Positions 4,306 to 29,705 of a DNA stretch of 64,000 nt are shown piece by piece (the stretch's first letter is position 1; each line of letters opens with the position of its first letter). Under the pieces are notes generated by a model, which worked only from the letters and a program-made list of their open reading frames with translations, made no database searches and had not been told where the DNA came from. Position numbers and translations under genes: made by a program. The DNA is taken from assembly GCA_964370905.1 (NCBI GenBank), contig CAYJKK010000004.1, forward strand, positions 38,289 through 102,288, given 5' to 3'. The DNA comes from an uncultured Clostridium sp. GTDB lineage: Bacteria; Bacillota; Clostridia; TANB77; CAG-508.

Positions 4306-4335
4306 GTATTACCTATCCTTTAGGAGGTGAGAAAA

Positions 4336-5172: not shown

Positions 5173-5195
5173 TTAAAAAGGAAGGAAATAAGAAT

Positions 5196-6074: not shown

Positions 6075-6078
6075 TACA

Positions 6079-6429: not shown

Positions 6430-6430
6430 A

Positions 6431-8779: not shown

Positions 8780-10312
8780 GTGGCAGATATAAAATTAAAA
8801 GAAGTAGGAAATAAGACAATTAAAACATTAGATAAAGCAGTTACAGGATTTAAAAATACAAAAGAAAATCTAGTAGAGATAAAAAGAAATACTGATAATA
8901 TTTCTACAAAAGAAGAAACAGTAAATCAAGGTGTTAGTGATAAAATGATGAATAGTGCTAATTATGGAAAAGGAACAGTAATTAGCACTATTCCTAAAAT
9001 TGGTAACAAAGCAGTTCGAAGTACTAATAATATGATTAAATTAAAGAATAAGAATATTAAAAAACTGACTGGAAAAGCAAGCAAAAAAGCAATAAAAAGT
9101 AGTAAGGTTGCTATAAAATCAACTCAAAAAGCAGTTAAATATAGTATTAAAACAGCAAAAGAAACAGCAGTAGCAACAAGAAGAATAATGTTAGCAATTA
9201 AGCAAATTACTAGAGCTAGTTATATAGCAATTAAAACAATAATAATTGCTACAATAAAGGCGATTAAACTTGCAATTGCAGGAACAAAAGCATTAATAAG
9301 TGCAATAATTGCTGGTGGATGGATAGCTGTTATAATTATAATTGTAATATGTATTATAGCTTTAATTTGTGGTTCAGCATTTGGTATATTTTTTTCAAAC
9401 GAGAATGAGAATAGTGATAAAAATATAAGTAGTGTTATATCAAACCTAAATTTAGAATTTTCTAATAAAATAACTACTATTCAGAATGAAAATGTATATG
9501 ATGACTATAATTTAGAAGTTGATAGAGCAGATTGGAGAGAAATATTAGCAACTTACACAGCAAAAGTTACAGGTGGCAAAGGTACTAATGAAGTTGTAAC
9601 AATGGATAGTGGGAAAGAAGAAATTTTAAAAAATATATTTTGGGATATTCACGAAGTAAGTTATGAAATTAAAAGTGAAGATGTAGTAGAAGAACTAATA
9701 GATGACAATGGAGTAAGTACTTATCAAACAGTTAATAAAGATATATTATATATAAAAGTAAATAGTAAAACTGTAGATGAAATAATGAATGAATATAATT
9801 TTACAGAAACACAAAGGAAAGAAGTAAATGAGTTATTAAAAGATGAATATTCTTCTTTATGGAATTCAGCAATTTATGGTACTTCAATAGGAAGTTCTGA
9901 TATTGTAGAAGTAGCCATATCACAACTTGGAAATATTGGAGGAGAGCCATATTGGTCTTGGTATGGATTTGAATATAGAGTAGAATGGTGTGCCACTTTT
10001 GTAAGTTGGGTAGCTAATGAAACAGGATATATAGAATCAAATACTATTCCTAAGTTTGCAGGAGTAATTAACGGTATTAATTGGTTTAAAATGATTGGAG
10101 AATGGGAAGATAGTAATTATATACCAACTGAAGGTAGTATAATATTTTTTGACTGGGAACAAGATGGTATAGCAGATCACGTAGGAATAGTTGAGAAGGT
10201 AGATAAGGATAAAGTATATACAATAGAAGGTAATTCTAACAATGAATGTAAACAATTATCATATTCCTTAAATAGTAAAGTTATATATGGATATGGTACT
10301 CCTAATTATTAG
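8780..10312 (+). CDS. Membrane-anchored cell-wall hydrolase with C-terminal CHAP/NlpC-P60-type domain (VirB1 analogue)
   Basis: Central TM helix. Catalytic-type Cys in EWCATFVSW and His in DHVGIV. Confidence 0.8.
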   Translation: MADIKLKEVGNKTIKTLDKAVTGFKNTKENLVEIKRNTDNISTKEETVNQGVSDKMMNSANYGKGTVISTIPKIGNKAVRSTNNMIKLKNKNIKKLTGKASKKAIKSSKVAIKSTQKAVKYSIKTAKETAVATRRIMLAIKQITRASYIAIKTIIIATIKAIKLAIAGTKALISAIIAGGWIAVIIIIVICIIALICGSAFGIFFSNENENSDKNISSVISNLNLEFSNKITTIQNENVYDDYNLEVDRADWREILATYTAKVTGGKGTNEVVTMDSGKEEILKNIFWDIHEVSYEIKSEDVVEELIDDNGVSTYQTVNKDILYIKVNSKTVDEIMNEYNFTETQRKEVNELLKDEYSSLWNSAIYGTSIGSSDIVEVAISQLGNIGGEPYWSWYGFEYRVEWCATFVSWVANETGYIESNTIPKFAGVINGINWFKMIGEWEDSNYIPTEGSIIFFDWEQDGIADHVGIVEKVDKDKVYTIEGNSNNECKQLSYSLNSKVIYGYGTPNY

Positions 10313-10324
10313 ATGATACAGATT

Positions 10325-10347
10325 AAAACAGTCAATTTGACTGTTTT
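10325..10347. terminator. Bidirectional hairpin between convergent genes
   Basis: AAAACAGTCAA-t-TTGACTGTTTT, an 11-bp perfect stem flanked by A and T runs. Confidence 0.6.
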
Positions 10348-10736
10348 AATGCGTTTTCTAATACTATTGGTAATTTTTCTAATTCAAATGATTTTAATAA
10401 ATATCCGTCAAATCCTTCAGACAAAAACTTCGTTTCTGTTTTATATACTGAATATACAATTACTGGAGTTTCAAAATTATCTAAATCTCGCAATTTAGAT
10501 AGAAGTTTGGCACCATAAGTAATGTTTCCATCTTGATATATACTATTACTAAAAATAATATCATAGGAATTAGTAATAACTTTTTTGAATACTTCATCAG
10601 CAGTTGATACAATTTCTACTTTAAATCCAAAATTAATTAAGTGTTTTTCTAATAATTCTGCAAAATGCTTGTTATAACAGCCAATAAGAGCTTTTTTGTT
10701 CGCATAAATGTTTAAATATTTTTCTTCAAATAACAT
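10332..10736 (-). CDS. Stand-alone CheY-like receiver-fold protein lacking the acidic pocket (pseudo-receiver)
   Basis: REC-like pattern: beta5 GYLLKSF with the conserved Lys, and VIVYSVY. The DD position reads GCYNK and the phospho-Asp position reads IIFSNS. Confidence 0.55.
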   Translation of the reverse strand: MLFEEKYLNIYANKKALIGCYNKHFAELLEKHLINFGFKVEIVSTADEVFKKVITNSYDIIFSNSIYQDGNITYGAKLLSKLRDLDNFETPVIVYSVYKTETKFLSEGFDGYLLKSFELEKLPIVLENALKQSN

Positions 10737-10887
10737 TAAAGGCTCCTTTCTTATATTAAATACTATCTTATATTATATAACATTTACATTGAAAATTAAA
10801 TACTTTTTCAAAATTTTATCCAACAGTTGTTCATAGACATATTTAGTCATTTTTTGTAGCATAATATTATATATGGAGGTAAATGTT

Positions 10888-11154
10888 ATGAGTAATAAAT
10901 TTAAAAATAAAAGCCGTGAAAACCTAGCTAATAATATATTAACAATCAGATATGAAAAAGATTTGTCTCAAGAAAAGCTAGCACAATTATCAGGTTCTAG
11001 TTCAAACTATATTAGTAATATTGAAGCAGGCAAAAGAAATCCTTCATTGGATTTTATAGATAATCTTGCAAAAGCACTTGGTGTAGAAAGTGATGAATTA
11101 TTAAAGAAGAATAAAAAAGTTAAACCTAGACTTAGAGTAGATAGTAAAAATTAA
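10888..11154 (+). CDS. XRE-family HTH transcriptional regulator (possible controller protein of the downstream R-M-like operon)
   Basis: HTH LSQEKLAQLSGSSSNYISNIEAGKRNPS. RBS GGAGGT lies 7 nt before the ATG at 10888 (the ORF track starts at 10873). Confidence 0.8.
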   Translation: MSNKFKNKSRENLANNILTIRYEKDLSQEKLAQLSGSSSNYISNIEAGKRNPSLDFIDNLAKALGVESDELLKKNKKVKPRLRVDSKN

Positions 11155-11180
11155 AAATAGCGTAAAAGCTATTTTTTTTC
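11154..11180 (+). terminator. Intrinsic terminator after the XRE gene
   Basis: AAAATAGC-gtaaaa-GCTATTTT followed by a T run. Confidence 0.6.
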
Positions 11181-11332
11181 GTTATATAAATTTTTTCATA
11201 AAATGATGTTATTTTTTAAGATAACAATAGAAAATTTGTTTAGTATGTGATATAATTCGACTAAGAATTTTAGTATAAAAGAATGTATTTAAGTTAATTG
11301 TAAATTCTTGGAGCAAAGGAGCCGATATATAT

Positions 11333-14300
11333 ATGGAATTAATTGATAATAAAACAAAAAAATTAGGTGATGATTTAAAAAAAGAAATTAAGTCTAATAG
11401 CAAACTAAAGATATGTGCCTCAGTTTTTTCAATGTATGGATTTGAGACATTAAAAAAAGAATTATCTAAAATAGATAATTTAAAATTTATATTTACTGAC
11501 CCTACTTTTGTAAATACAGTAACAGCAAAAAAAGAAACAAGACAATTTGGAATTGGTGAATATAATAGAGAAAAACTAATTAATGGAACAGAATATGAAG
11601 TAAGATTAAAAAATGAATTAAATACAAAAGCAATAGCAAAAGAATGTGCTAAATGGGTGCAAGAAAAGGTTTTATTTAAAAGCAATATAAACAGAAACCC
11701 AATAAATAAATTTATTAATATTGAAACACCACCTGCTATATTATCTAAACAAAAATTAACTACATATTTAAATACGGATGAGTTTAATACCGTAGGTTTT
11801 GGTTATGAAAAAGGAAATGGATTATTTAATCCTATTACTAAAGTTAATGATGATTTTGAAATGAGTAAATATTATATAAAATCATTTGAAGAATTATGGA
11901 ATGATGAAAAAAACTTTAAAGATATAACTAGTGATGTTATATCATATATTTCAGATTTGTATAAAGAAAACTCACCAGAGTTTATATACTATATTACTTT
12001 ATATAATATATTTAATGAATTTTTAGAAGATATAACAGAAGATGAACTAGCAAATGAAAAAACAGGTTTCAAAGAATCTGTAATTTGGAATACACTATAT
12101 GATTTTCAAAAAGACGCAGTATTAGGTTTAATAAATAAGCTAGAAAGACACAATGGTTGTATATTAGCAGACAGTGTGGGACTTGGTAAAACATTTACAG
12201 CACTTGCAGTAATGAAATATTATCAAGAAAGAAATAGAAGTGTTTTAGTATTATGTCCTAAAAAACTAACTGAGAACTGGAATACATATAAAGATAATTA
12301 TAAAGATAACATATTATTTAGGGATAGATTTAACTATGATGTTCTATATCATACAGATTTATCAAGAAAAAATGGTAAGTCAAATGGTATTGATTTATCG
12401 AGAGTAAATTGGGGGAATTATGATTTAGTAGTTATAGACGAATCTCACAATTTTAGAAATAACAATGCTAGAAAAGATAGAGATACTAGATACGATAGAT
12501 TAATGAAAGAAGTTATGAAAGCAGGAGTTAAAACTAAAGTATTAATGCTATCAGCAACGCCAGTTAATAATAAATTTACAGATTTAAAAAATCAATTAGC
12601 ACTTGCATATGAAGGTAATACAGATAAAGTTAATGATAAAATAAGTGAAAGCAAATCAATAGACACGATATTAAGAAATGCACAAAATACTTTTAATGAA
12701 TGGTCTAAACTTCCTATAGAAGAAAAGACAGGAACAGAGCTATTAAGAAGGTTAAATTCTAATTTTGATTTCTTCAAATTACTAGATAATGTTACAATTG
12801 CTAGAAGTAGAAAACATATAGAAAAACATTATGATATGAATCAAATAGGAAAATTTCCAACTAGATTAAAGCCTATTAGTAAGCAAACAGAAATTACAGA
12901 TATTCCAGATTTTATGACAGTAAAACAAATTTCTGAAAATTTAATGAAATTAAATATGAGTATCTATTCTCCGTTTGATTATATTTTAGATTCTAAATTA
13001 GAAGAGTATGAAAAGAAATATGATATATCTGTTAGAGATGGAAAAACAAGATTTAAGCAAGCAGATAGAGAAAAAAGTTTAAAAGTACTTATGAGAATAA
13101 ACTTACTAAAAAGACTAGAAAGTTCAGTAGACGCATTTAGAATTACATTGGTAAAAGTTTTATCACAAATAAATGCTAATATAAGTGCAATAAATAAATT
13201 TGAAAGTGCAGGAATAAATCAGTCTTTTTCAGAAATAGAACTTACAAATTACAATTCAGATGATGACGCTGAAGAATTAATGGAAGATGATTTTAACATA
13301 GGTAAAAATGTAAAAATTGATTTGAAAGATATGAATACTTTAGGTTTTAAAGAAGATTTATCAAAAGATTCTATATTACTAACAGAACTATTAAATGAAA
13401 TGAATAAAATAACACCAAAAGATGACTGTAAATTGCAAGAATTGATAGCTTTAATTAAATATAAGGTGAATAATCCAATAAATCCAAACAATAAAAAAGT
13501 TATTATCTTTAGTGCATTTGCAGATACAGCAAATTATTTATACAAACAGTTATCAACATCTATGAAAGAAAGTTTAGGATTAGAAACAGCTAAAGTTACT
13601 GGTTCTGGAACAAATGAATGTACACTTAAAATAGGGAGTGATTACAATAATTTACTTACTAACTTTTCTCCAAAATCTAAACATAGAGAATTAGTATTAC
13701 CTAGTGCAAGCGATGAAATTGATATTTTAATAGCTACTGATTGTATATCAGAAGGACAAAACTTACAAGATTGTGATTATTTAATAAATTACGATATACA
13801 TTGGAATCCAGTTAGAATAATACAAAGATTTGGTAGAGTTGATAGAATAGGTTCAAGTAATGAAGTTATACAATTAGTAAATTTCTGGCCTAATATAAGT
13901 TTAGATGATTATATCAATCTTAAAAATAGAGTTGAAAATAGAATGTTAATGTTAGATATTTCAGGTACTGGAGAAGATAATGTTTTAACAAACAAATCAA
14001 GTGATATGGAATATAGAAAAGCACAATTAAAAAAATTACAAGAAGAAGTAGTAGATTTAGAAGATATGAGTACAGGTATTGCAATAACTGATTTAGGTTT
14101 AAATGACTTTAGAATGGACTTATTGGAATTTATAAAAAATAGTGATATAAAGTTTGATAAAATTCCAAATGGTATGCACTCAGTAGTGTTTGAAGACAAA
14201 AACATAGGATTAGAAAAAGGAGTAATATATATTCTTAAAAACATAAATAATGATATTAATGTTGACAATGTAAATCAACTACATCCATTTTATTTAATTT

Positions 14301-14614
14301 ACATAAAAGAAAACGGAGAAATAAAATCTAATCATTTAAATATCAAAAATACGTTAGACATTATTAGAAGTGTATCAAAAGGAATGGATAAACCCATTGT
14401 TGAAGCATACACAAAATTCAATGAAGAAACAGATGATGGAAAAAGTATGAAAATGTATTCAGAACTATTAAATGATAGTATTAAATCTATTATTAATATC
14501 AAAGAAGAAAGTGATATTGACAGCTTATTTACAACTGGTGGTACTACTATGCTAAAGAATGATATAAAGGGAATAAGTGATTTTGAATTAATTTCATTTA
14601 TAGTGGTAGTATAG
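11333..14614 (+). CDS. SNF2-family helicase/translocase (1093 aa) with about 270 aa of non-helicase N-terminal domain
   Basis: Motif I DSVGLGKTFTA, motif II VIDESHNFRN, motif III LSATPVNN, motif VI QRFGRVDRIGS. No HxKx4D motif in the N-terminal region. Confidence 0.85.
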   Translation: MELIDNKTKKLGDDLKKEIKSNSKLKICASVFSMYGFETLKKELSKIDNLKFIFTDPTFVNTVTAKKETRQFGIGEYNREKLINGTEYEVRLKNELNTKAIAKECAKWVQEKVLFKSNINRNPINKFINIETPPAILSKQKLTTYLNTDEFNTVGFGYEKGNGLFNPITKVNDDFEMSKYYIKSFEELWNDEKNFKDITSDVISYISDLYKENSPEFIYYITLYNIFNEFLEDITEDELANEKTGFKESVIWNTLYDFQKDAVLGLINKLERHNGCILADSVGLGKTFTALAVMKYYQERNRSVLVLCPKKLTENWNTYKDNYKDNILFRDRFNYDVLYHTDLSRKNGKSNGIDLSRVNWGNYDLVVIDESHNFRNNNARKDRDTRYDRLMKEVMKAGVKTKVLMLSATPVNNKFTDLKNQLALAYEGNTDKVNDKISESKSIDTILRNAQNTFNEWSKLPIEEKTGTELLRRLNSNFDFFKLLDNVTIARSRKHIEKHYDMNQIGKFPTRLKPISKQTEITDIPDFMTVKQISENLMKLNMSIYSPFDYILDSKLEEYEKKYDISVRDGKTRFKQADREKSLKVLMRINLLKRLESSVDAFRITLVKVLSQINANISAINKFESAGINQSFSEIELTNYNSDDDAEELMEDDFNIGKNVKIDLKDMNTLGFKEDLSKDSILLTELLNEMNKITPKDDCKLQELIALIKYKVNNPINPNNKKVIIFSAFADTANYLYKQLSTSMKESLGLETAKVTGSGTNECTLKIGSDYNNLLTNFSPKSKHRELVLPSASDEIDILIATDCISEGQNLQDCDYLINYDIHWNPVRIIQRFGRVDRIGSSNEVIQLVNFWPNISLDDYINLKNRVENRMLMLDISGTGEDNVLTNKSSDMEYRKAQLKKLQEEVVDLEDMSTGIAITDLGLNDFRMDLLEFIKNSDIKFDKIPNGMHSVVFEDKNIGLEKGVIYILKNINNDINVDNVNQLHPFYLIYIKENGEIKSNHLNIKNTLDIIRSVSKGMDKPIVEAYTKFNEETDDGKSMKMYSELLNDSIKSIINIKEESDIDSLFTTGGTTMLKNDIKGISDFELISFIVVV

Positions 14615-14615
14615 T

Positions 14616-15161
14616 ATGATAGAAAATCCAATAGATACACTTTTAAAAATAATGGATTATAGTGAAATTTTACTGAATATTAATGAAAGTATGTATGAAA
14701 TAAAACAGTTTATAAATAAAAAAGACATTACTGCATTAGATTATAGGATGATAGAACAAAAACATAAGAATATAATTGATAGAATTGTTAAAATTTTAGC
14801 GGTTGATAAAAACTTTCCCAACTATGTAAAAACAAACACAGGTATTATACAGTTAAAAGAAAATATACCTTATTTAGAAACAGAAATTCAAAAAATAGTG
14901 TTAAACTATTTAGAGTTGTTAGATACAATTAGGTATGTTAGAAATAAAAAATGCGAACACGAAATTCATAATATGTATACTGTAAATTTATTAAGAGAGA
15001 AAGAGCAATCGAGATTTAATTATGTATATAAACATACAGATGTATATAAAATAAATACTATTGAATTAGAAAGATTGATAGAAGATATAAATGTATTATT
15101 TGACAAAATTTATAGTGATATAAATTTTCAAAAAAATTATAGGATTGGAAATAAAAAATGA
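14616..15161 (+). CDS. Hypothetical protein (181 aa), translationally coupled between the SNF2 and DUF4391-like genes
   Basis: Starts 1 nt after the SNF2 stop. Its 3' end overlaps the next gene by 4 nt (ATGA). Confidence 0.6.
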   Translation: MIENPIDTLLKIMDYSEILLNINESMYEIKQFINKKDITALDYRMIEQKHKNIIDRIVKILAVDKNFPNYVKTNTGIIQLKENIPYLETEIQKIVLNYLELLDTIRYVRNKKCEHEIHNMYTVNLLREKEQSRFNYVYKHTDVYKINTIELERLIEDINVLFDKIYSDINFQKNYRIGNKK

Positions 15162-15775
15162 AAGAAGTATTACCAAAAGATTGTATAGTAAATAGGTTTA
15201 TACCTAAAAAAACATTTTATGAAAAAACTAATGTAAGTGTAGTTACCAAAACTGAATTTATAGATATTGTAGATAAAATAACTTGGAAATATAAACTAGC
15301 TGAAGATACAATTAATATAACTAAAACAGATGAAGTAGAAGAAATAGAAATATTTGAAATTGAATTAAAAGAAAAAAAGATTCCTAGAAATGTTATAAAT
15401 ACAATAGTTAGAGCAATCCCATATAAAATATTATTTATATTAAGTTATAAAGAAGAATTTTGCTATATGATAAATGCCAATCAAAACTATTATAGTAAAT
15501 GGAATGAAGAAATAGAATTTGATTTTTCTGATATCAATTTAGAATATATTTATCAAAATATTGTTAAAAAGCTTATAAAACACGAAGATAATGATAATGG
15601 CAATAAAAATTTCCAACAAATATTAGAAAATAATAAAAAGAAGGAAGAATTAAATAAAAGAATTGACATTTTAAAAAACAAAGTTAAAAATGAAAAACAA
15701 TTTAATAAAAAAGTTGAATTTAATCAAGAATTAAGAAAATTAGAAAGCGAATTGGAGGAATTAATAAATGAATAA
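15158..15775 (+). CDS. DUF4391-like protein (205 aa)
   Basis: Pattern IPKKTFYEK...ITWKYKL...EEIEIFEIELKEKKIP...IPYKILFIL matches my memory of the DUF4391 family, which co-occurs with SNF2 helicases and methyltransferases. Confidence 0.6.
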   Translation: MKEVLPKDCIVNRFIPKKTFYEKTNVSVVTKTEFIDIVDKITWKYKLAEDTINITKTDEVEEIEIFEIELKEKKIPRNVINTIVRAIPYKILFILSYKEEFCYMINANQNYYSKWNEEIEFDFSDINLEYIYQNIVKKLIKHEDNDNGNKNFQQILENNKKKEELNKRIDILKNKVKNEKQFNKKVEFNQELRKLESELEELINE

Positions 15776-17612
15776 ATTAGATATGCAAACAACAGATATT
15801 GTAGATGAAAACATAGAAAAAATAGGAGAGTTGTTTCCAAATGTTATTGTTGAATCTGAAAAAGGAAAAGCAATAGATTTTAATTTACTAAAACAAGAAT
15901 TATCAAAAGTAGCAGTAGATGAAAGTAAAGAAAAATACCAACTTACTTGGCCAGGAAAAAAAGAAAGTATTATAACTGCAAATACTCCTACTACTAAAAC
16001 ATTAAGACCAGTAAAAGAAAAGTCAGTAGATTTTGAAAACACTAAGAATATATATATAGAAGGTGATAACCTTGAAGTATTAAAAATATTACAAGAGTCA
16101 TATTTAAATAAAGTTAAATGTATATATATAGACCCACCATATAACACAGGGAATGATTTTATATATAATGATAAATTTAGTAAAAGCAAAGAAGAAGAAT
16201 TAGAAGAGTCGGGACAAGTTGATGAATATGGTAATAAAATGGTATCTAACCCACAATCTAATGGTAAATATCATAGCGATTGGTTATCAATGATGTATCC
16301 AAGAATAAAGCTTGCTAGAAATTTACTTACTGATGATGGCGTAATATTTATATCAATTGATGATAATGAAGTTGATAATTTGAAAAAAGTTTGTAATGAG
16401 ATTTTTGGCGAGAATAATTTTATATGTGATATTATTAGAAAAACTAAATCTACAACTAATGATAGCAATGTAGGTGTAAATGTGCAACACGAAAATACAC
16501 TTATATATTCTAAAAATAACAATAAATGTAAATTATATGGTGAAGAAAAAACATTTGAAAACTACAAAAATCCTGATAATGATTTGAATGGAGAATGGTG
16601 TTCAGCAGATCCAAGTGCAAGAACAGGTTCTACATTTGAAATAATAAATCCGTATACGGGGAGAGTGGATTTGCCACCTTTAAACAGTTGCTGGAGATTT
16701 TCAAAAAAATCATTTGATGAATTTGTAAAAAGTGGTAAGATAAAATTCAAAGAATCTCATAATGAAAATGAAAGAGGATTTATATTTAAAAGATACAAAA
16801 ATGAAGTTAAGAGTGAATATAATAAAATCGGAAGTTTATTTGGTGTGGACAATAAATATATGAATCAAGCAGCAACTAAAAATATAAATGAATTAATTCC
16901 TGAGTTTAAAGCGTTTGATTATACAAAACCAGTAAACTATATGTTTAAATTATTACAATACTCATCAGATAAAGACACGATTGTTTTGGACTTCTTCTCG
17001 GGATCAGGAACAACAGCACACGCTTGTATGCAACTAAACGCTGAAGATGGTGGGAATAGAAAATACATAATGGTACAATTACCAGAAAAATGTGATGAAA
17101 AATCAGAAGCATTTAAGGCAGGATATAAAACGATTTGTGAAATAGGACAAGAAAGAATTCGTCGTGCTGCAAATAAAATAAAAGAAGAAACGAAAGCTGA
17201 TATTGATTATGGATTTAGAGTATATAAAGTAGATTCATCTAATATGAAAGATGTATATTATACAGCAGATGAATATAAACAAGAGCAATTAGAAATGTTT
17301 ACTACCAATATAAAAGAAGATAGAAATAATAACGATTTATTAACTTCTGTTATCTTAGATTTAGGTTTATCATTAGATTTAAAAATTGAAGAAAAAACAA
17401 TATTAGATAATAAAGTATATTTTATAGACGAAAATTCATTAGTAGCTTGTTTTGATGATAATATAAATATAGAAATAGTAGATAATATTGCAAAATATTC
17501 ACCATTAAAGGTAGTATTTAGAGAAAGTTCGTTTAAGTCCGATAATGATAAAATAAATTTAATGGAAAAGATGAAAAAAATATTGCCAGAAACAGAGGTT
17601 AGTGTAATATAA
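15768..17612 (+). CDS. mod: Type III-like DNA methyltransferase (Mod, beta-class N6/N4 MTase)
   Basis: YQLTWPGKK N-terminal motif. Motif IV IYIDPPYNTGNDF precedes motif I LDFFSGSGTTAHA. Confidence 0.85.
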   Translation: MNKLDMQTTDIVDENIEKIGELFPNVIVESEKGKAIDFNLLKQELSKVAVDESKEKYQLTWPGKKESIITANTPTTKTLRPVKEKSVDFENTKNIYIEGDNLEVLKILQESYLNKVKCIYIDPPYNTGNDFIYNDKFSKSKEEELEESGQVDEYGNKMVSNPQSNGKYHSDWLSMMYPRIKLARNLLTDDGVIFISIDDNEVDNLKKVCNEIFGENNFICDIIRKTKSTTNDSNVGVNVQHENTLIYSKNNNKCKLYGEEKTFENYKNPDNDLNGEWCSADPSARTGSTFEIINPYTGRVDLPPLNSCWRFSKKSFDEFVKSGKIKFKESHNENERGFIFKRYKNEVKSEYNKIGSLFGVDNKYMNQAATKNINELIPEFKAFDYTKPVNYMFKLLQYSSDKDTIVLDFFSGSGTTAHACMQLNAEDGGNRKYIMVQLPEKCDEKSEAFKAGYKTICEIGQERIRRAANKIKEETKADIDYGFRVYKVDSSNMKDVYYTADEYKQEQLEMFTTNIKEDRNNNDLLTSVILDLGLSLDLKIEEKTILDNKVYFIDENSLVACFDDNINIEIVDNIAKYSPLKVVFRESSFKSDNDKINLMEKMKKILPETEVSVI

Positions 17613-18419
17613 ATGAATATTAAAAAATATACATATAATTTTATCTTATTATTCTCAATTGTGCTGAATATATTTCTAGGTATTATTGTAATATTAAGTC
17701 ACTTAGATTTTAAATTTAATATTCTAACACAAGATAATTGGATTGATATTATGCTCTGTTTGATTACAATAATACCGACTAGTATATTTTCATATCTTAT
17801 ATTTAAACAAGCAAAAGATATTAGTAACAGGCAAGAAAAATTTGAAGTAGAACTGCTGCAGAAACAATTCGATGCTTCGCTAAGAGAAAATAGATTAAAT
17901 GTATATAATACTTTTATGAGTTTGAAATATATAGAAAGAATTTATAATAGTGATATAGTAATTTTAAATTTTATAAATCAAAATCACGAAGAAAACAAAA
18001 AAATATTTGATTTATTATTAAAAAAGGAAGAACAAATTATATTGGCATTATGTAATAGTAAGTTATTATTTAAGAATGATTTGGAACTAGAAGAACAAAA
18101 TGATAATTTGGCTAAATTGATTATAGCGTATAGAGAGTGTGCACAAGAATTTGCAAAAAATATCTATAAAGCAAATGATGAGGCGTTATCTTATTTGCAT
18201 ACATATCATTTATATATTCCAACGAAAGTTATACCGAAAAATGTAATAACAAAGAATAAAAAAATATTTAATGATGTAAAAGAAATATTTAGGAAATATA
18301 CAGAAGATTTGAAAAATAAAATAAGTGATATTAGTGATATATTTGATGGAGACTATTATATGAATTTATATGACAAATATATAAATATAGATATAAAAGA
18401 TAGTAGTATTGAAAAATAA
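17613..18419 (+). CDS. Membrane-anchored coiled-coil protein (268 aa), unknown function
   Basis: The ATG directly abuts the mod stop. Two N-terminal TM helices, then a helical Lys/Glu-rich domain. Confidence 0.6.
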   Translation: MNIKKYTYNFILLFSIVLNIFLGIIVILSHLDFKFNILTQDNWIDIMLCLITIIPTSIFSYLIFKQAKDISNRQEKFEVELLQKQFDASLRENRLNVYNTFMSLKYIERIYNSDIVILNFINQNHEENKKIFDLLLKKEEQIILALCNSKLLFKNDLELEEQNDNLAKLIIAYRECAQEFAKNIYKANDEALSYLHTYHLYIPTKVIPKNVITKNKKIFNDVKEIFRKYTEDLKNKISDISDIFDGDYYMNLYDKYINIDIKDSSIEK

Positions 18420-18441
18420 TAAAGTGAGAAAGGAGAAAAAC

Positions 18442-18801
18442 GTGGATAAATATTGTGATAAAGATGATATTACAAATTGGCTAAAAGAAGGTAAACATAT
18501 TTTTTTAGAAAACAGTAGAGTAGCAACAGATAGTGAAGAATTGAAAGAGGAAGAGTTATTTTTTGTTAGTGGAACATCTGAAATAAATAATAATATTGAT
18601 AGAATTACATTAACCCAAATAGATAGTGGTGAAATAGAAAATATATTAAATTATTTAGATGAAAATAGCCTAATAACTAAGAAAGAATTAGAACTAAAAT
18701 ATAATGTAACAAAAGAAAAAGATCATTCTATCAATGCTTTAATTGCTAAAAAATATATTAAAGAAGTTGGAGATAAATATCAAATTATAAAAAGGAGGTA
18801 A
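18442..18801 (+). CDS. Small protein with a winged-helix-like C-terminus (about 119 aa)
   Basis: RBS AAGGAG lies 6 nt before the GTG at 18442 (the ORF track begins at the TTG at 18409). C-terminal segment ITKKELELKYNV...INALIAKKYIKEVGDKYQI. Confidence 0.5.
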   Translation: MDKYCDKDDITNWLKEGKHIFLENSRVATDSEELKEEELFFVSGTSEINNNIDRITLTQIDSGEIENILNYLDENSLITKKELELKYNVTKEKDHSINALIAKKYIKEVGDKYQIIKRR

Positions 18802-18806
18802 AACAA

Positions 18807-21800
18807 TTGAAATTAAAATTTAAAAAACAACAATATCAAGAAGACGCAGTAATGTCAGTAGTAAATTGTTTTGCTGGGCAGAAAAAAGGAAATAGAAAAG
18901 ACTTAATAGCAAGATATACTAAGGTAACTGGTGTCGGATTTTTGGAAGAAAAAGAAGATGTAGAAGTAGTAGCATTCGGGAATAAACAAATCGAACTTTT
19001 AGAAAGTGAAAGAAGATTAAACATTAGAGAAGTACAAAGAGTAAATGATATTAATTATACAGACTCTGCTAGTTTAAATGATTTTACTATTGAAATGGAA
19101 ACTGGTACTGGTAAAACATTTACATATATAAAAACAATGTATGAACTAAATAAGCATTATGGTTGGAATAAATTTATTGTAATGGTTCCATCTATTGCAA
19201 TACGTGAAGGAGTACAGAAGTCTTTTGAAATAACTAAAGATTATTTTCAAGAAATATATCATAAAAAGATTAGATTTTTTGTATATAATTCATCAAATAG
19301 TTCTAATATAGCAAATATAAATACTTTTGCGTCAGATGATTCTGTGCAAGTAATGATAATAAATTATCAAGCATTTAATGCAAAATCAAGCAGTAATAGA
19401 AGAATATATGAAGAACTAGATGAACTGCAATCAAGAAGACCAATAGACGTAATTAAAAGTGTTAGACCAATTCTAATAATAGATGAGCCACAAAAGTTTG
19501 GAGATAAGACTGAGGAGCTATTTAAAGAATTTAATCCACTAATAAAAATAAGATATTCTGCAACACATAAAAAAGGTAAAGAATATAACAAAGTATATAG
19601 GTTAGACGCAATTGACGCATATAATCAAAAATTAGTTAAAAAAATAAATGTAAAAGGTATAGAAGTTCTAAATAACAAATCAGAAGATACATATATGTTT
19701 TTAGAAAGTGTAGATATAAGTCAAAAAAGTGATCCAGTGGCTAAAATGGAAATTGAAGTTAAATCACAAACAGGTGTTACTAGAAAATTAATGAAAATAA
19801 AAGCTGGAGATGATTTATATACAAAGTCAGGTGGATTAACACCATATAAGGGATATGTAGTGAGCGAAGTAGACGCAAGATATGAAGCTTATGATAAAGT
19901 ATTTTTTACAAATGGTAAAGAAATATCATCAGGTCAAGCAATTGGAGATGTAGACGAAGAATATATTGTAAGAATACAAATTAGAGAAACAATAAGAACT
20001 CATTTAGAAAAGGAAAAAGAGTTATTTAAACAAGGGATTAAAGTACTGTCATTATTCTTTATAAATGAAGTAGCTAAATACAAATTTTATGAAAATGGAA
20101 CTGCATTAAAAGGTGATTATGCTAAAATGTTTGAAGAAGAATATATTAATGCTGTAAATGATTTTAGAAGTATAATTGATGAGGAATATACAAAGTATTT
20201 AGATTCATTTGATACTGGTAAAATACACTCAGGATATTTTTCTATTGATAAAAAAGGACAAGTGGTAGATTCAGCAATAAACGATAAAAAAGAATATCTT
20301 AGTTTTGATGAAGGAGCATATGACTTAATAATGAAAGATAAAGAAAGGTTATTATCTTTATCTGAACAAGTTCGATTTATATTCTCACATTCAGCACTTC
20401 GTGAAGGTTGGGATAATCCTAATATATTTCAAATATGTACATTAAAACATAGTAATTCTGAAATTAGTAAAAGACAAGAAATAGGTCGTGGTCTTCGTAT
20501 TTGTGTAAACAATGATGGAGACAGAATGGATTATAATACTTTAGAAAATAATTTCCATATAGTTAATACTTTAACAGTAGTTGCAAGTGAATCTTATGAT
20601 AGTTTTGCTAAATCATTGCAATCAGAAATGTCAGATAGTTTAACAGCAAGACCTAAAAACTTTGTTCAAGAAAACTTTATTGGAAAAGTATTAGTAAATG
20701 AAGAAGGACATAAATATGAATTTACAGCAGAACATTATCAAGACTTTTTATTCCATAATGTAGAATGTGGATATATAGATAGAAAAGATAACTATAAAAT
20801 AACAGATAAATTTATTGATGATATGGAAAATAATAAACTAGAGATAATGGAAGAATTACAACCTTTTGAAAATGAAGTTCATAATTTAATGTTAAAATTA
20901 TACTCTACAAATAATACTAAATTAGTATCAGATGAAAGAAGAGAAAATATAAAAGATTTAAAACCGAATAGTAATTTTGAAAGAAAAGAATTCCAAGAAC
21001 TATGGGACAAAATCAATGTAAAAACAATGTATGAAGTTTCTTTTGATACAAATGAATTAATAGATAAAACAATTAATTCAATTAATGATAAATTAACAAT
21101 AAACAAAATGAAAGTAAGAATAACAGAAGGTAATCAGAAAGAAAATATATCAGCAGTAAGTGTAAATAGTAAAGAATCTATGGTAGAGGCAAAAACAAAA
21201 GTAGAAGTTGTTGATAGCTTTTCAAGTTCTCAAATAAAATATGATTTAATAGGAGAACTGACAAAAGACACTGGGCTTACGAGAAAAACAATTATTGATA
21301 TTTTGAAAAATATCAAAGCAGATAAATTTGAATTTTTCAAATATAATCCAGAAGAATTTTTAAGAAAAGTTTCAAAAATTATAAACGAAGAAAAAGCAAC
21401 AACTGTTATTGATGGAATAACTTATCACAAAACAGATAAAAAATATAGTAATGATATATTTACAATTAATAATGTAAGAGCAGAACTTGGAGAAAATGCA
21501 ATTGATGTAAAAAAACATATATATGATTTTCTTGTAACAGATTCTAATAACGAAAAAGAATTTGCTAAAAAATTAGAAACTGGAGAAGTAACAGTATATG
21601 CTAAGCTACCAAATGGGTTCAAAATACCAACTCCAGTAGGTAACTATAACCCAGATTGGGCAATTGTATTTGATAATGAAGATTTTAAATACATATATTT
21701 TATTGCAGAAACAAAAGGTAGTATGAAGTCAATGGAACTGCGAGAAGTTGAGAAAGCTAAAATAGAGTGTGCTAAAAAGCATTTCAAAGCTATATGTAAT

Positions 21801-21860
21801 GATAAAGTTAAATATGATGTAATAAATAACTATGAAACATTGATTAATATAGTAACATAG
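18807..21860 (+). CDS. res: Type III restriction enzyme Res subunit (helicase plus C-terminal PD-(D/E)xK nuclease)
   Basis: Walker [11 protein letters not shown], motif II IIDEPQKF, ALREGWDNPNIF, QEIGRGLRI. Nuclease motif NPDWAIVF...IAETKG. TTG start with RBS AGGAGG. Confidence 0.85.
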   Translation: MKLKFKKQQYQEDAVMSVVNCFAGQKKGNRKDLIARYTKVTGVGFLEEKEDVEVVAFGNKQIELLESERRLNIREVQRVNDINYTDSASLNDFTIEMETGTGKTFTYIKTMYELNKHYGWNKFIVMVPSIAIREGVQKSFEITKDYFQEIYHKKIRFFVYNSSNSSNIANINTFASDDSVQVMIINYQAFNAKSSSNRRIYEELDELQSRRPIDVIKSVRPILIIDEPQKFGDKTEELFKEFNPLIKIRYSATHKKGKEYNKVYRLDAIDAYNQKLVKKINVKGIEVLNNKSEDTYMFLESVDISQKSDPVAKMEIEVKSQTGVTRKLMKIKAGDDLYTKSGGLTPYKGYVVSEVDARYEAYDKVFFTNGKEISSGQAIGDVDEEYIVRIQIRETIRTHLEKEKELFKQGIKVLSLFFINEVAKYKFYENGTALKGDYAKMFEEEYINAVNDFRSIIDEEYTKYLDSFDTGKIHSGYFSIDKKGQVVDSAINDKKEYLSFDEGAYDLIMKDKERLLSLSEQVRFIFSHSALREGWDNPNIFQICTLKHSNSEISKRQEIGRGLRICVNNDGDRMDYNTLENNFHIVNTLTVVASESYDSFAKSLQSEMSDSLTARPKNFVQENFIGKVLVNEEGHKYEFTAEHYQDFLFHNVECGYIDRKDNYKITDKFIDDMENNKLEIMEELQPFENEVHNLMLKLYSTNNTKLVSDERRENIKDLKPNSNFERKEFQELWDKINVKTMYEVSFDTNELIDKTINSINDKLTINKMKVRITEGNQKENISAVSVNSKESMVEAKTKVEVVDSFSSSQIKYDLIGELTKDTGLTRKTIIDILKNIKADKFEFFKYNPEEFLRKVSKIINEEKATTVIDGITYHKTDKKYSNDIFTINNVRAELGENAIDVKKHIYDFLVTDSNNEKEFAKKLETGEVTVYAKLPNGFKIPTPVGNYNPDWAIVFDNEDFKYIYFIAETKGSMKSMELREVEKAKIECAKKHFKAICNDKVKYDVINNYETLINIVT

Positions 21861-21901
21861 AAAATAATTAATAGTTTGAAATATCAACAATAGGAGGAAA
21901 T

Positions 21902-24223
21902 ATGATTAGAGAAAATTCTTTTGTACCAGTATATACTGATATACATATTCATACATCAGAAGATCCAGATAAATTAAATTCAAAATATAACATAGAAAAA
22001 CTTATTGCTAATATGAATAAAATTGCACAAAATTCTATAAAACTAATAAGTTTTACAGATCATAATGTAATAAATAAGAGTGTATATCTAAGTGAATTTC
22101 CAAATGATGTATATTTGGTTTTAGGTGTAGAACTTCATATTAGATTCGCTAAAGAAAAGGAGCCTTATCACTGTCATATGTTATTTGACTGTGAAATAAC
22201 TGAAAATACTATAGATGTAATTAATGACAAACTAAATAAATATTACCCAATAAAGCATATTAAAAACGAAGATAATATACCTTTTTTGCAAGATATAATA
22301 AATGAGTTTGATGATTATAATTACTTGATTTTACCTCATGGTGGACAAAACCATAAGACATTTAACTTAGCTATACCTAAGGGGAGCAAATTAAATAATG
22401 TTATGGAAAGAATGCTATACTATAATCAATTTGATGGATTTACCTCTAGATCACAAACTGGAACAAAGAAAACAATCGATTATTTTAAAAAATTAGGAAT
22501 AAATGAATTTACAAATTTATTAACCTGCAGTGATAATTATAAGCCAAATAGTTATCCTAATCCTAAAAGTGGTACTAAAACATTCATACCTACTTGGATA
22601 TTATCGGAACCTACATTTGAAGGTTTAAAAATAGCTTTATCTGAAAAATCCAGACTAATATACTCAAAGGAAAAACCAGAAATTTATGAAGAATATATAA
22701 AAGAGTATAAAATAAAAAATGATAAATTGAATATTGATGTAAAATTCCAACCTGGATTAAATGTAATAATTGGGGAGTCATCTAGTGGAAAAAGTTTATT
22801 AGTTGATACGTTGCTTAATTCAATTAAAGGAACAATTAAACAAAGCTCATATGCTAAGAAATTTGACTTTGCTAATTTGAATGTTAGTAATCCAGCTGGA
22901 TTCACACCGCATTATATAAATCAAAACTATATTATGGACATATCAAAAACTGAAAAAATAGAAGATATTCCTTTAATAAAAAAGATGTTTGGATCTAAAA
23001 CAGAGATAGAGATTAAGACAGATGAAAAGATACTAGAATTAAAAGAAACACTTGATTTTATAATTGATAAAGTTGAAAGTATTCAACAGTTACACTCTGA
23101 GTTTAAATCTTTATTAAGTATAAATAAAATTTTACTTAAAAAAACAAAAAATATAAATCCATTTAACACTATATTTCCAGATAATAGATTACTTGAAAAA
23201 ATGGATTTTAGTAAAACTACATATAACGAATTCTTGACAAAATTAGACGAAATAGATAAATTTGCTAAAAATAATATTTTTACTGATGATATAACAAATG
23301 AAATAGAAATTATTAAAGAAAAATTAAAGAATAGTTTCGAGTTAAATGTATTCCAAGAAATTATTTCTAATATAATCAGTGATAAACAAACTAAATTTTT
23401 AGAAATGTTAGAGCAACAAACAGACAAAGAAAAAATAAAAAAAGAAAATTATAACAAACTGATATATTTTATTAGTAAATATTTAGAAGAAATAGATGCG
23501 TTTGATAAGAAAATAAAAAAACTAAAAAAATATTCGTATAAAATAAACTCAGATAAAAAAGTTATTGCAAATCATAAACTATATGTATCTAATGAATTTA
23601 AGATTGATGATAAAGTTATATTAGAAAATTTAAATACATTCTTAATTAGAGATAAAGAAATCAAAGAATTTGACTCAATAACACCAGAAATGCTATTTTT
23701 GAATAATTATAATGGTAATTATAAAATTAAAAGCTATGATATTTTAAAAAACAAATTATTAGAGGCATTTACAAGTAATAATGTATATAAATATAAAATA
23801 ACTACTTCTGATAATAGAAATTGGTCTGACCTAAGTCCAGGATGGAAAACGGCTATTTTAACGGAATTAATTTTACAATATGATGGTGATCAGGCACCTT
23901 TAATTATAGATCAACCAGAGGATAATCTGGCTAATGGATACATCAATAATAAGTTAATTACAGACATTCAGAAAGCAAAAATAAGAAAGCAGATAATAAT
24001 AGTAACACATAATGCAACAATTCCAGTATTAGGTGATGCACAAAATATAATAGTATGTCAAACCAAAAATAATGTTTTAAATATTAACTCGGGATTATTG
24101 GAAGAAAAAATAGATGATAAATTTTCACTAGAGCATATTGCACAAATAGCTGATGGTGGAAAAAGCTCCATTAAAAAGAGATTTAAAAAATATAATATCA
24201 AGAAGTTCAGGGAGAGTGATTAA
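21902..24223 (+). CDS. PHP-domain phosphoesterase fused to an ABC/SMC-like ATPase (PplA-like defence protein candidate)
   Basis: PHP His motifs DIHIHT, FTDHN, LPHGGQNH. Walker A IIGESSSGKS. Coiled-coil middle region. Signature-like LSPGWK, Walker B LIIDQPEDNL, IIVTHNA. Confidence 0.7.
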   Translation: MIRENSFVPVYTDIHIHTSEDPDKLNSKYNIEKLIANMNKIAQNSIKLISFTDHNVINKSVYLSEFPNDVYLVLGVELHIRFAKEKEPYHCHMLFDCEITENTIDVINDKLNKYYPIKHIKNEDNIPFLQDIINEFDDYNYLILPHGGQNHKTFNLAIPKGSKLNNVMERMLYYNQFDGFTSRSQTGTKKTIDYFKKLGINEFTNLLTCSDNYKPNSYPNPKSGTKTFIPTWILSEPTFEGLKIALSEKSRLIYSKEKPEIYEEYIKEYKIKNDKLNIDVKFQPGLNVIIGESSSGKSLLVDTLLNSIKGTIKQSSYAKKFDFANLNVSNPAGFTPHYINQNYIMDISKTEKIEDIPLIKKMFGSKTEIEIKTDEKILELKETLDFIIDKVESIQQLHSEFKSLLSINKILLKKTKNINPFNTIFPDNRLLEKMDFSKTTYNEFLTKLDEIDKFAKNNIFTDDITNEIEIIKEKLKNSFELNVFQEIISNIISDKQTKFLEMLEQQTDKEKIKKENYNKLIYFISKYLEEIDAFDKKIKKLKKYSYKINSDKKVIANHKLYVSNEFKIDDKVILENLNTFLIRDKEIKEFDSITPEMLFLNNYNGNYKIKSYDILKNKLLEAFTSNNVYKYKITTSDNRNWSDLSPGWKTAILTELILQYDGDQAPLIIDQPEDNLANGYINNKLITDIQKAKIRKQIIIVTHNATIPVLGDAQNIIVCQTKNNVLNINSGLLEEKIDDKFSLEHIAQIADGGKSSIKKRFKKYNIKKFRESD

Positions 24224-24475
24224 ATGGAATATAAAGTAATTAAGAATAAGAATGAAATTGAATTTATTAAAGATGATGAAAAAAAATTAGATTATATAGA
24301 AATGGTAAGAGACCTATATAAAGGAAATAAAGTCGGATTTAATATACAAAAAAATTGTGGTATCTCTGAAGAAGAAACAGAGATGATACTTGAATTACAA
24401 AAAGAAATAAACATTTTAACAGTAAGTGATAAAAGAAAAAAGTTAATAAAGGATTTTGAAAGGAATAAAAGATAA
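24224..24475 (+). CDS. Small acidic protein (83 aa) translationally coupled to the PHP-ATPase
   Basis: The ATG immediately follows the TAA of the upstream gene. Confidence 0.5.
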   Translation: MEYKVIKNKNEIEFIKDDEKKLDYIEMVRDLYKGNKVGFNIQKNCGISEEETEMILELQKEINILTVSDKRKKLIKDFERNKR

Positions 24476-24498
24476 TTAACGTATATTATTGTAAAAAG

Positions 24499-24522
24499 TT
24501 AGCAAGAAATTGCTAATTTTTT
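24499..24522 (+). terminator. Intrinsic terminator closing the defence operon
   Basis: TTAGCAA-gaaa-TTGCTAA followed by TTTTTT. Confidence 0.7.
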
Positions 24523-24975
24523 CTTTTTAACGACAAATTTCGACACAAAAAAATAAAACAATATGATATAGTTTATAATAAATAAAGTTCAATACTTGGT
24601 GATAAAAGTATAGATATACCATTTAAAACAATATAAAAGATACAAATACAATAATAGTTATTGTATAGTAGGCAAAATAAGGAAAAGGGTCAGTGACTGC
24701 AATTATTCTTTTAATTAACAAAAGATAAATTAAGGCTTACTGACTCTTTTTGTGCAGTCACAAATTTAGTTTTGTGGAGGCGTATGTTGTTTGAAAAATG
24801 GTATGAAATTGATTTAGATATTCATTTTAGAAATAGAGATAAATTTACTAATTGTATTAGTGGCTTTATCTCTATTTTTTTATATTCAATTTATCATATT
24901 AATTTGAAAGTGATATATAGATGTAGAAGTCCACCAACTCCAATTATTTAGAAAAAAATGATTGGAGGATAAAAA

Positions 24976-25449
24976 ATGGACAAGATTCCTAAAAGAAGAA
25001 AAAGAAAAGATAATCCATATACCATTTTTAAAAATGGTGATACATATAAAATATCATTTAAAGATAATCAAGGTAGGATACAAAAAGTTGATATTACAAA
25101 AGAAATATATGAAGTATTTAATGAATTTGAACTTATGGATAAGTCTTTAATAAATGAAGAAGAGAGATATTTTGAAAGATTAGAGTTATCAGAAGAATTG
25201 ATACATAAAAGGGCATTTATTAACCCAATAGCATTATTAGATGAGGTAGTTCTTAAAGATACTTTAAATAAGTTAAAAATAGCTTTAAATAGTTTACCTG
25301 AAATTCAAAAAAAAAGAATTGAAATGTACTATTTTAACAGTATGACATTTCAACAAATTGCTCAAAAAGAAGGTTGTACTAAGAGAGCAGTTAAGTTTTC
25401 TATAGATTTAGGAATAGAAAAAATGAAAAAAATTTTAAAAAATTTATAA
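24976..25449 (+). CDS. Sigma-70 region-4-like HTH protein typical of conjugative-transposon regulation modules
   Basis: LPEIQKKRIEMYYFNSMTFQQIAQKEGCTKRAVKFSI. RBS GGAGGA. Confidence 0.65.
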   Translation: MDKIPKRRKRKDNPYTIFKNGDTYKISFKDNQGRIQKVDITKEIYEVFNEFELMDKSLINEEERYFERLELSEELIHKRAFINPIALLDEVVLKDTLNKLKIALNSLPEIQKKRIEMYYFNSMTFQQIAQKEGCTKRAVKFSIDLGIEKMKKILKNL

Positions 25450-25605
25450 TTCAGACTACACTTTTGGTGAATTAATGAGGAATAGTATGAGGAGATATAA
25501 AATATCAATTCAAATCTATTCCTTTTTTATTATAAGGAAAAATGTTCCTTGAAAATTTAATATACATTCATTAGATACATTTCATTATCATAAGCACATT
25601 AATAA

Positions 25606-29695: not shown

Positions 29696-29705
29696 AGGAG
29701 GTAAA

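Follow-up and report, generated by a model that had tools for sequence, protein, structure and literature searches.

A seven-gene operon on the + strand of a 64 000-nt stretch of DNA from an uncultured Clostridium sp. (contig CAYJKK010000004.1, positions 38 289 to 102 288; the whole stretch is called the window below) is best explained as a four-component Type III-like restriction-modification (R-M) core with locus-specific embedded effectors, carried on a conjugative element. We give this reading a probability of about 0.6. The core consists of an SNF2-family ATPase, a DUF4391 protein, a Mod methyltransferase and a Res endonuclease; these four genes have intact predicted catalytic sites (the Mod methyltransferase, the Res Superfamily 2 (SF2) helicase and nuclease, and the SNF2 ATPase), and they are inherited and diverging together. 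The three remaining genes are referred to as orf181, TM268 and wH119. All coordinates are collected in Table 1. A first-pass annotation, made from the letters of the DNA alone, had described seven tightly packed genes at 11333-21860 and had named the SNF2, DUF4391, Mod and Res proteins. The seven open reading frames (ORFs) are present with all of the junctions that it gave, and the four identities are borne out by Pfam and PADLOC profiles and by motifs.

The SNF2 protein scores 55.4 bits against SNF2-rel_dom (cut-off 24.9) and 59.6 bits against Helicase_C, which places it amongst the SNF2-family ATPases, and its motor motifs were located at GLGKT 283, DESH 369 and QRFGRVDR 831. The core is preceded by a conserved N-terminal domain of ~250 amino acids and followed by a conserved C-terminal region of ~190 amino acids. 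The first-pass annotation had stated that the N-terminal domain lacks an HKD motif. We found no conserved HxK in this domain among 58 sequences (the window protein and 57 homologues), and the statement thus holds for this family of homologues as a whole. The same domain gave no Pfam match at E <= 10, no PLD profile and no PDB profile match. An active PLD/HKD nuclease at the SNF2 N-terminus, which would call for an HxK(x)4D motif and a PLD profile, was rejected with neither being found.

The DUF4391 protein matches its Pfam family over almost the entire profile (Table 1). An AlphaFold2 model built from 28 sequences (pLDDT 87.5) comprises an alpha/beta domain at residues ~1-140 and a C-terminal helical hairpin at 152-203. 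A nuclease reading of this protein was considered and rejected, the weak Foldseek rows for a resolvase and a splicing endonuclease not being significant. There was no match to DUF4391 among the PADLOC models, and PDB sequence and profile searches with DUF4391, the SNF2 N-terminal domain and the orf181 family returned no informative match.

In Mod, DPPY (122) precedes FSGSG (410), which is the motif order of a beta-class methyltransferase. Res combines the SF2 helicase motifs GTGKT (100), DEPQ (226) and GRGLR (560) with a C-terminal PD-(D/E)xK nuclease (PD at 949-950, ETK at 968-970), as expected of a Type III endonuclease subunit. Against the NCBIfam equivalog for Type III endonucleases, PRK15483, it scores 362.5 bits (4.4e-108), below the cut-off of 564, and its identity to plasmid genes that carry a Type III endonuclease annotation is ~26-33%, mostly over half of its length. 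These scores mark Res as a homologue from a different clade. Within the operon, PADLOC labels Mod and Res as Type III and the SNF2 protein as the CRISPR-neighbourhood cluster C3a139 'HKD+Snf2'. The first-pass annotation had named classification of the whole locus by existing tools as a finding that would speak against it; among the PADLOC 2.0 models, only those for Mod and Res assign Type III.

To place the operon among its relatives, a DUF4391 alignment was scanned against one genome per species. This census returned at least 480 relatives, and 80 loci were kept, from Firmicutes, the Candidate Phyla Radiation (CPR)/Patescibacteria, Omnitrophota, Planctomycetota, Desulfobacterota, Bacteroidota, Spirochaetota, Thermotogota and archaeal metagenome-assembled genomes (MAGs). 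Among the matches listed, the closest DUF4391 relatives come from uncultured Bacilli and Coprobacillus MAGs. An SNF2 gene lies immediately upstream of DUF4391 in all 58 loci with enough sequence. Mod and Res lie downstream of the SNF2-DUF4391 pair in 41/44 loci and upstream in 2/44; in the remaining locus (L070) Res is not within the flank. The two loci with the order Mod-Res-SNF2-DUF4391, from Segetibacter koreensis (L064) and a Chitinophagaceae MAG (L083), are both from Bacteroidota, and there the two gene pairs behave as permutable blocks that remain adjacent. No census locus clearly has SNF2-DUF4391 without Mod and Res. In the closest loci, the SNF2 gene abuts DUF4391 cleanly and the gap between Mod and Res is 12 nt. 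The first-pass annotation had proposed a composite system and not plain Type III R-M; the obligate linkage of SNF2 and DUF4391 to this Mod/Res clade across many phyla upholds that proposal.

The four genes also diverge in step. Pairwise-identity matrices were compared for 37 systems (36 complete loci and the window), with 500 permutations as the control. The correlations were r = 0.97 for SNF2-Res, 0.955 for SNF2-DUF4391 and 0.95 for DUF4391-Res, whilst those involving Mod were 0.77-0.79; no observed value was reached in any of the 500 permutations. The lower values for Mod are as expected if its target-recognition regions are exchanged. In 37/37 systems, the SNF2 motifs GLGKT, DESH and motif VI (QRFGRxDR), the Res motifs GTGKT, DEPQ, GRGLR and PD...ETK, and the Mod motif DPPY are all invariant.

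The same four genes were found on plasmids of Escherichia coli, Acinetobacter, Enterococcus and Aeromonas. On E. coli IncFIB plasmids they form a clean four-gene operon, present in 10/5426 complete E. coli genomes; one E. coli plasmid copy is that of pEC21Z137-115K (NZ_CP101235.1, 3254-12300). On the Enterococcus faecalis plasmid pKUB3007-1, the SNF2 gene is interrupted by ISL3, and a 185-residue 'hypothetical protein' between SNF2 and Mod (4637-5194) turns out to be a divergent DUF4391 (hhalign probability 98.3%). Pfam annotation therefore probably understates the size of the SNF2-DUF4391-Mod-Res family, which is under-annotated on this plasmid at least. Sequence matches alone identify full-length homologues of SNF2 and/or Res on plasmids of Listeria, Lactococcus, Leuconostoc and Bacillus cereus. 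Wherever plasmid examples were checked, an SNF2 gene still adjoined homologues of Res with as little as ~35% identity. A megablast of the whole operon against plasmids gave no match. A DUF4391 homologue was also seen at 4729-5322 of the phage record MT836075.1, a 13-kb phage contig from human faeces. Among the PHROG families, window positions 11333-12142 match phrog_26785, with the SNF2 N-terminal domain matching a 1087-position profile at 1.2e-35, and 15158-15772 match phrog_37194. Taken together, the phage homologue and the PHROG matches indicate that some phages carry an SNF2-DUF4391 module.

Within the window, the core is interrupted at two of its junctions. The SNF2 gene stops at 14614 and orf181 opens with an ATG at 14616; orf181 and DUF4391 share the overlap ATGA (15158-15161); DUF4391 and Mod overlap by 8 nt (15768-15775); and the ATG of TM268 (17613) directly follows the Mod stop (17612). 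For wH119, a mechanical ORF from TTG 18409 would give 130 amino acids and overlap the TM268 gene; this is probably too long. A GTG at 18442, 6 nt past AGGAG, gives 119 amino acids and a 22-nt spacer after TM268. This gene ends at 18801, and Res starts with TTG 18807, with AGGAGG upstream. At the local 21-23% GC, the chance of the frames staying open is ~4e-10 for orf181, ~3e-14 for TM268 and ~6e-7 for wH119, and 0/2000 shuffled controls for the three ORFs were open. From these odds, all three are genuine genes and not chance ORFs.

A promoter-like site lies 77 nt ahead of the SNF2 start codon (Table 1), and no terminator-like site was called by the scan on the + strand within the operon; the only + strand call in 10000-25500 was upstream, at 10322-10350. 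The HTH_3 gene that precedes the operon is 38% identical to a helix-turn-helix (HTH) gene at 3831-4091 of the closest metagenomic homologue locus (L001), where it lies upstream of the homologous operon in the opposite orientation. It may be a controller of this operon family, or the mobile element's own regulator. A hairpin with a T-run after the HTH_3 gene was read by eye and was not called by the terminator scan. On the - strand, a 158-residue antisense ORF (window 11209-11685) overlaps the SNF2 start region. Its translation is rich in Leu, Phe and Ser, a composition expected where an A-rich coding strand is read in reverse complement, and it is probably not a gene. No Rfam family was found in 9000-30000, and the window contains no tRNA.

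The three interrupting genes behave quite differently from the core. None of the 86 homologous loci has a tblastn-detectable relative of orf181, TM268 or wH119, although the core proteins of these loci are up to 81% identical to those of the window. Among 5.8 billion proteins, orf181 and TM268 matched only themselves. The searches with wH119 were narrower, and no relative was found in close-relative scans of metagenome and viral contigs or in tblastn of plasmids and phages. The first-pass annotation had treated the seven genes as one system and had named absence of the extra genes from homologous loci as a finding that would speak against it. The gene-neighbourhood census bears out the four-gene core and returns exactly that absence for the three extras; the first-pass suggestion that they are specific to this variant applies no further than to their being one-off cargo.

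A full HMMER search with orf181 identified 17 remote homologues (E 1e-6 to 1e-3). In 16 aligned sequences (15 relatives and orf181), the motif RNKxEHxxH is invariant, with orf181 carrying a one-residue insert; its residues R109, N110, K111, H115 and H118 conform to the HEPN Rx4-6H motif. Orf181 is a probable HEPN-type RNase. Single relatives gave weak profile matches, one to HEPN_LA2681 (scores below) and another to Abi_C (E = 0.11). The relatives are stand-alone genes in varied contexts, none within an R-M operon: one is fused to NUDIX, and one has a reverse transcriptase, an M78-HTH gene and a DUF3368 gene as neighbours. TM268 has N-terminal hydrophobic segments at 6-38 and 43-65, in keeping with the two transmembrane (TM) segments read earlier, followed by a soluble C-terminal region of ~200 amino acids; it had no Pfam, PHROG, PADLOC or NCBIfam match. 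For wH119, the earlier description as winged-helix-like was not confirmed. Its winged-helix matches are sub-threshold (B-block_TFIIIC, 20.1 bits against a cut-off of 22, 7e-4; MCM_C, 0.057), and it may be a winged-helix protein.

We recorded a junction gap wherever more than 300 nt separated two core genes in a related locus. Such gaps occur between SNF2 and DUF4391 in 6/81 loci, between DUF4391 and Mod in 25/68, and between Mod and Res in 30/64, although in ~10 of the last the Mod match ends short and the gap may be a divergent Mod C-terminal region. ORFs in the gaps belong to RhuM, a second Mod, 23S_rRNA_IVP, PDDEXK_3, YhcG/DUF1016, Bro-N, ORF6N and Shedu SduA, with RhuM at the Mod-Res junction in 14 related loci. 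One locus (L013) has a complete Shedu SduA (SduA_N and SduA_C, 190-1341) between SNF2 and DUF4391, a junction that is rarely occupied and that in the window is taken by orf181. The Aeromonas media plasmid pE31A has, within 1526-7998, both a 900-residue UvrD-like helicase between DUF4391 and Mod and a pair of AAA_21 ATPase and DUF4276 genes at its Mod-Res junction. The core junctions thus accept varied, mutually unrelated cargo. Kinship between the window extras and the inserted ORFs of related loci was looked for by phmmer and rejected, the matches being noise (best 0.0018 in a 60-sequence set).

Embedded genes of this kind have precedents. HEPN and RhuM genes have been described within R-M operons, and multi-level defence has been proposed for them (Anantharaman et al., PMC3710099); in the Type IC system EcoprrI, PrrC serves as a guard, set off by inhibition of the restriction enzyme (PMC12707154); and the Hma operon, an SNF2-methylase system, has been reported as an insertion hotspot for other defence genes (PMC11232893). 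The window operon shares with PrrC/EcoprrI, and with the HEPN, RhuM and Doc genes of R-M operons, the placement of toxin-type genes between R-M subunit genes, and orf181 has a HEPN-like RNxxxxH motif. It differs in that the host operon is Type III-like and not Type I, that orf181 lacks an ABC-ATPase domain and belongs to no recognised HEPN family, and that TM268 and wH119 have no known counterpart. By analogy, orf181, TM268 and wH119 may be PrrC-like second-line effectors and not subunits.

Classical Type III enzymes need Mod and Res alone, and cleave in the presence of ATP and two inversely oriented unmethylated sites. The window core resembles canonical Type III systems (EcoP1I and EcoP15I, Mod2Res) in its beta-class Mod, in a Res that joins an SF2 helicase to a PD-(D/E)xK nuclease, and in having mod before res on one strand. 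It departs from them in the divergence of its Res, in the variable genes hosted at its core junctions, and in the obligate linkage of SNF2 and DUF4391, which raises doubt as to whether two genes suffice in this clade.

Amongst multi-gene systems, the first-pass annotation had pointed to DISARM. The likeness to class 1 DISARM (DrmA, DrmB, DrmC, the SNF2 helicase DrmD and the methylase DrmMI) stands as far as an SNF2 helicase and an adenine-type methylase in a multi-gene operon are concerned, and the SNF2 helicase core matches DrmD (PADLOC 3.8e-40; NCBIfam 8e-49). The DrmD match is limited to that core, at 167 bits against a cut-off of 610, and the nuclease here is a Type III Res. No operon protein matched a DUF1998 or PLD domain, and only SNF2 matched DrmA, again in the helicase core. 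With drmA (helicase with DUF1998), drmB (DUF1998) and drmC (PLD nuclease) absent, membership was rejected and the analogy is one of resemblance only. Hma (the SNF2 helicase-nuclease HmaA, the methylase HmaB and the ATPase HmaC) also pairs an SNF2 helicase with a methylase, and the helicase core of the window protein matches HmaA at 1.8e-25. HmaA carries its own C-terminal PD-(D/E)xK nuclease, whereas no nuclease motif is present in the window SNF2 protein and a separate Res supplies the nuclease; an HmaC-like ATPase is likewise not part of the window system. Membership of Hma was rejected on the lack of a nuclease on the window helicase. The SNF2 protein matches the C3a139 'HKD+Snf2' model end to end at 6.8e-131. 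This label goes back to a survey of the gene neighbourhoods of type III CRISPR-cas cassettes (Shah et al. 2018, PMC6546367); it is a neighbourhood statistic from four genomes and not a function, and its 'HKD' part is not borne out here. The earlier remark that SNF2 and DUF4391 with Mod/Res have no defined mechanism agrees with our search: no paper or solved structure for the SNF2-DUF4391-Mod-Res system was found among open-access papers and preprints, an absence that is not proof. In the open-access literature, DUF4391 came up in two papers, one of which has it as an enrichment-table entry only. As predicted from its genes, SNF2-DUF4391-Mod-Res is a widespread, unstudied, helicase-assisted variant of Type III R-M.

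How the operon might work can be outlined in part from established Type III biology. Mod would methylate one strand of a short asymmetric host site, and the Mod-Res complex would cut unmethylated incoming DNA after ATP-triggered movement along the DNA. SNF2-DUF4391 would be an accessory ATP-driven DNA translocase module working with Mod-Res, the DUF4391 helical hairpin perhaps serving as the adaptor, and would be needed for restriction or strongly boost it; one way would be to drive or clear the DNA between sites. The three extras sit exactly at two junctions of the core, in translational coupling with the genes around them, and TM268 and wH119 would be a membrane protein and its small, putatively DNA-binding partner. 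All three could act as second-line effectors of the abortive-infection type, co-expressed with the restriction complex and possibly held in check by it.

Several points weigh against this picture. The role given to SNF2-DUF4391 is putative, and the DUF4391 model had no significant structural neighbour in the PDB (Foldseek, best E = 0.45). Neighbouring genes that are inherited as a block are expected to co-diverge, which is no proof that their products physically interact. For orf181, the HEPN reading is drawn from a motif and from sub-threshold profile matches, HEPN_LA2681 scoring 16.7 bits against a cut-off of 27 over the motif region of one relative; the single-sequence AlphaFold2 model of orf181, with four long helices, is of low confidence (pLDDT 57.8), and its Foldseek matches to HEPN toxins, at E ~1, are not significant. 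TM268 and wH119 have no informative homologues, and effector or regulator roles for them are pure analogy. The translational coupling could equally fit the extras as functional subunits in this one lineage. Finally, the NCBI Prokaryotic Genome Annotation Pipeline (PGAP) names this Res 'type III restriction-modification system endonuclease', and Type III systems of lactococci are regarded as M+R alone; from these, Mod and Res may suffice for restriction. A cloned lactococcal Type III system, Lcr007I, has been reported to confer protection (PMC12418389).

One alternative is an ordinary two-gene Type III system beside which SNF2-DUF4391 would be an independent module, as occurs in defence islands. 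PADLOC and NCBIfam models do recognise Mod and Res by themselves, the SNF2 family was first flagged as a type III CRISPR-cas neighbour (C3a139; PMC6546367), and two loci (L064 and L083) have the pairs in swapped block order. Yet the linkage is near-absolute across distant phyla (58/58 and 43/44) with start and stop codons overlapping, the co-divergence of SNF2, DUF4391 and Res stands at r >= 0.95, and neither the plasmids, where SNF2 stays alongside Res to ~35% identity, nor the census has yielded a clear separation of the two pairs; we regard independence as rather improbable. A regulatory role for SNF2-DUF4391, which would, for instance, delay cutting until the DNA of a new host is methylated after conjugative or plasmid transfer or would alleviate restriction after DNA damage, is also improbable. 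It would suit a system so often found on mobile elements (this one, many plasmids and one phage contig) and an SNF2 N-terminal domain that has no nuclease motif. Classical Type III operons are not known to have a C protein. The invariant ATPase motifs reflect selection on the motor and fit regulator and effector alike, and the upstream HTH gene could already supply transcriptional control.

The other two alternatives concern the extras. That all seven genes make up one obligate seven-component defence machine would account for genes that abut or overlap behind one promoter-like site with no internal + strand terminator-like site. We consider it very improbable: the extras are missing from all 86 homologous loci even with cores up to 81% identical, orf181 and TM268 have no match but themselves and wH119 no relative in its narrower scans, the closest loci are clean at both junctions, and unrelated genes occupy those junctions elsewhere. 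Conversely, the extras could be hitchhikers, whether selfish or neutral, or genes for addiction or anti-defence, without a role in phage defence and persisting only because the junctions tolerate insertions. Their orphan status and the varied contexts of the remote orf181 relatives, all outside R-M operons, would agree with this. It is nonetheless unlikely, as the same junctions elsewhere hold typical defence and toxin families (Shedu, RhuM, YhcG, PDDEXK_3 and AAA_21 with DUF4276), the insertions are precise and coupled and in this way keep the core genes downstream expressed, and the orf181 relatives include the NUDIX fusion and the neighbour of the reverse transcriptase and M78-HTH gene. We therefore favour the four-component core with embedded effectors. 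A bolder version, which we consider less likely than not, is a distinct, widespread class of ATP-dependent restriction in which SNF2, as a chromatin-remodeller-type translocase, and the fold-orphan DUF4391, as an adaptor, would be obligate subunits, with a mode of action unlike that of classical Type III enzymes. The junctions would dock guard effectors, orf181 (as a new HEPN-like family) and TM268/wH119 (as a membrane effector without detectable homologues) being previously unseen examples.

Gene content identifies the left half of the window (1-29455) as a predicted integrative conjugative element (ICE), with the operon as defence cargo in its accessory region. In addition to the genes in Table 1, the ICE has DUF3801 and an HTH_17 excisionase-like gene. 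Tn916-type elements carry cargo at the place that corresponds to the position of the defence operon.

Table 1. Features of the operon and its surroundings, in window coordinates (aa, amino acids)
Feature	Position	Strand	Evidence or remark
Relaxase	88-1206		ICE gene
Coupling protein (T4CP)	2126-3955		ICE gene
VirB4-like ATPase	6431-8767		ICE gene
CHAP hydrolase	8780-10312		ICE gene
HTH_3 (Cro/C1-type) regulator	10873-11154	+	Pfam HTH_3 7.2e-15; immediately upstream of operon
Promoter-like site	11228-11256	+	TAGAAA-17-TATAAT with TG extension (extended -10); 10/12 consensus matches; consensus match only
SNF2-family ATPase, 1093 aa	11333-14614	+	Pfam SNF2-rel_dom 6.8e-15, Helicase_C 4.1e-16
orf181, inserted passenger	14616-15161	+	Predicted all-helical; R109-N110-K111...H115...H118
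DUF4391 protein, 205 aa	15158-15775	+	Pfam PF14335 138.8 bits (threshold 29.9), 3.6e-40, profile positions 3-232 of 232
Type III Mod, beta-class N6A/N4C methyltransferase, 614 aa	15768-17612	+	Pfam N6_N4_Mtase 3.1e-36; PADLOC MTase_III 1.2e-227, full length
TM268, inserted passenger, 268 aa	17613-18419	+	Hydropathy scan
wH119, inserted small acidic protein, 119 aa	18442-18801	+	GTG start with AGGAG
Type III Res, 1017 aa	18807-21860	+	PADLOC REase_III 8.2e-290, full length; Pfam ResIII 1.4e-14, RE_endonuc 1.1e-34
Ppl/TrlF-like ATPase, 773 aa	21902-24223	+	41 nt after Res with AGGAGG; PADLOC Ppl 1.4e-21
Sigma-70 region-4 protein	24976-25449		ICE gene
PemK/MazF-family toxin	25924-26283		Pfam 7e-30
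Two tandem tyrosine recombinases	26974-29455		ICE right end
uvrB, chromosomal	29667-31661		Directly beyond ICE

The gene that follows Res encodes a 773-residue ATPase that is probably a separate, second defence gene. Its NCBIfam scores fall below both cut-offs (TrlF, 3.4e-60, 204.8 bits against 350; Ppl, 3.2e-29, 101.5 bits against 1000), and by these thresholds it ranks as a relative of Ppl/TrlF and not a member. Its N-terminus may be PHP-like, as read from the residues, with no domain match. No terminator-like site was called between Res and this gene, which may be co-transcribed with the operon. An 83-residue ORF (24224-24475) begins right after its stop. Further along, a 61-residue ORF with no family match comes directly after the PemK/MazF toxin (window 25924-26468 for the two); if it encodes an antitoxin, the toxin-first order would be unusual. 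Between the CHAP and HTH genes, a 134-residue ORF on the - strand (window 10332-10736) has a weak receiver match (33 bits, cut-off 30.2), and no kinase partner was seen near it.

Textbook Type III restriction has two subunits. In a large clade, with at least 480 DUF4391 relatives in many phyla, an SNF2 motor and DUF4391 accompany Mod and Res. What is new here is a Type III-like R-M system with an obligate SNF2-DUF4391 module and unique embedded cargo, of which four genes are the conserved part. Should the extras prove inert and Mod and Res suffice, the locus would be an ordinary Type III system with passengers. The native copy on E. coli plasmids makes the four-gene core directly testable. The variable junction genes offer a natural catalogue of candidate second-line effectors; new entries from the window are a small HEPN-like family and an orphan membrane-protein pair. 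If SNF2 and DUF4391 are indeed required, this clade would possess a four-component machine with an unexplained second motor, one that annotation and defence-finding tools would under-describe.

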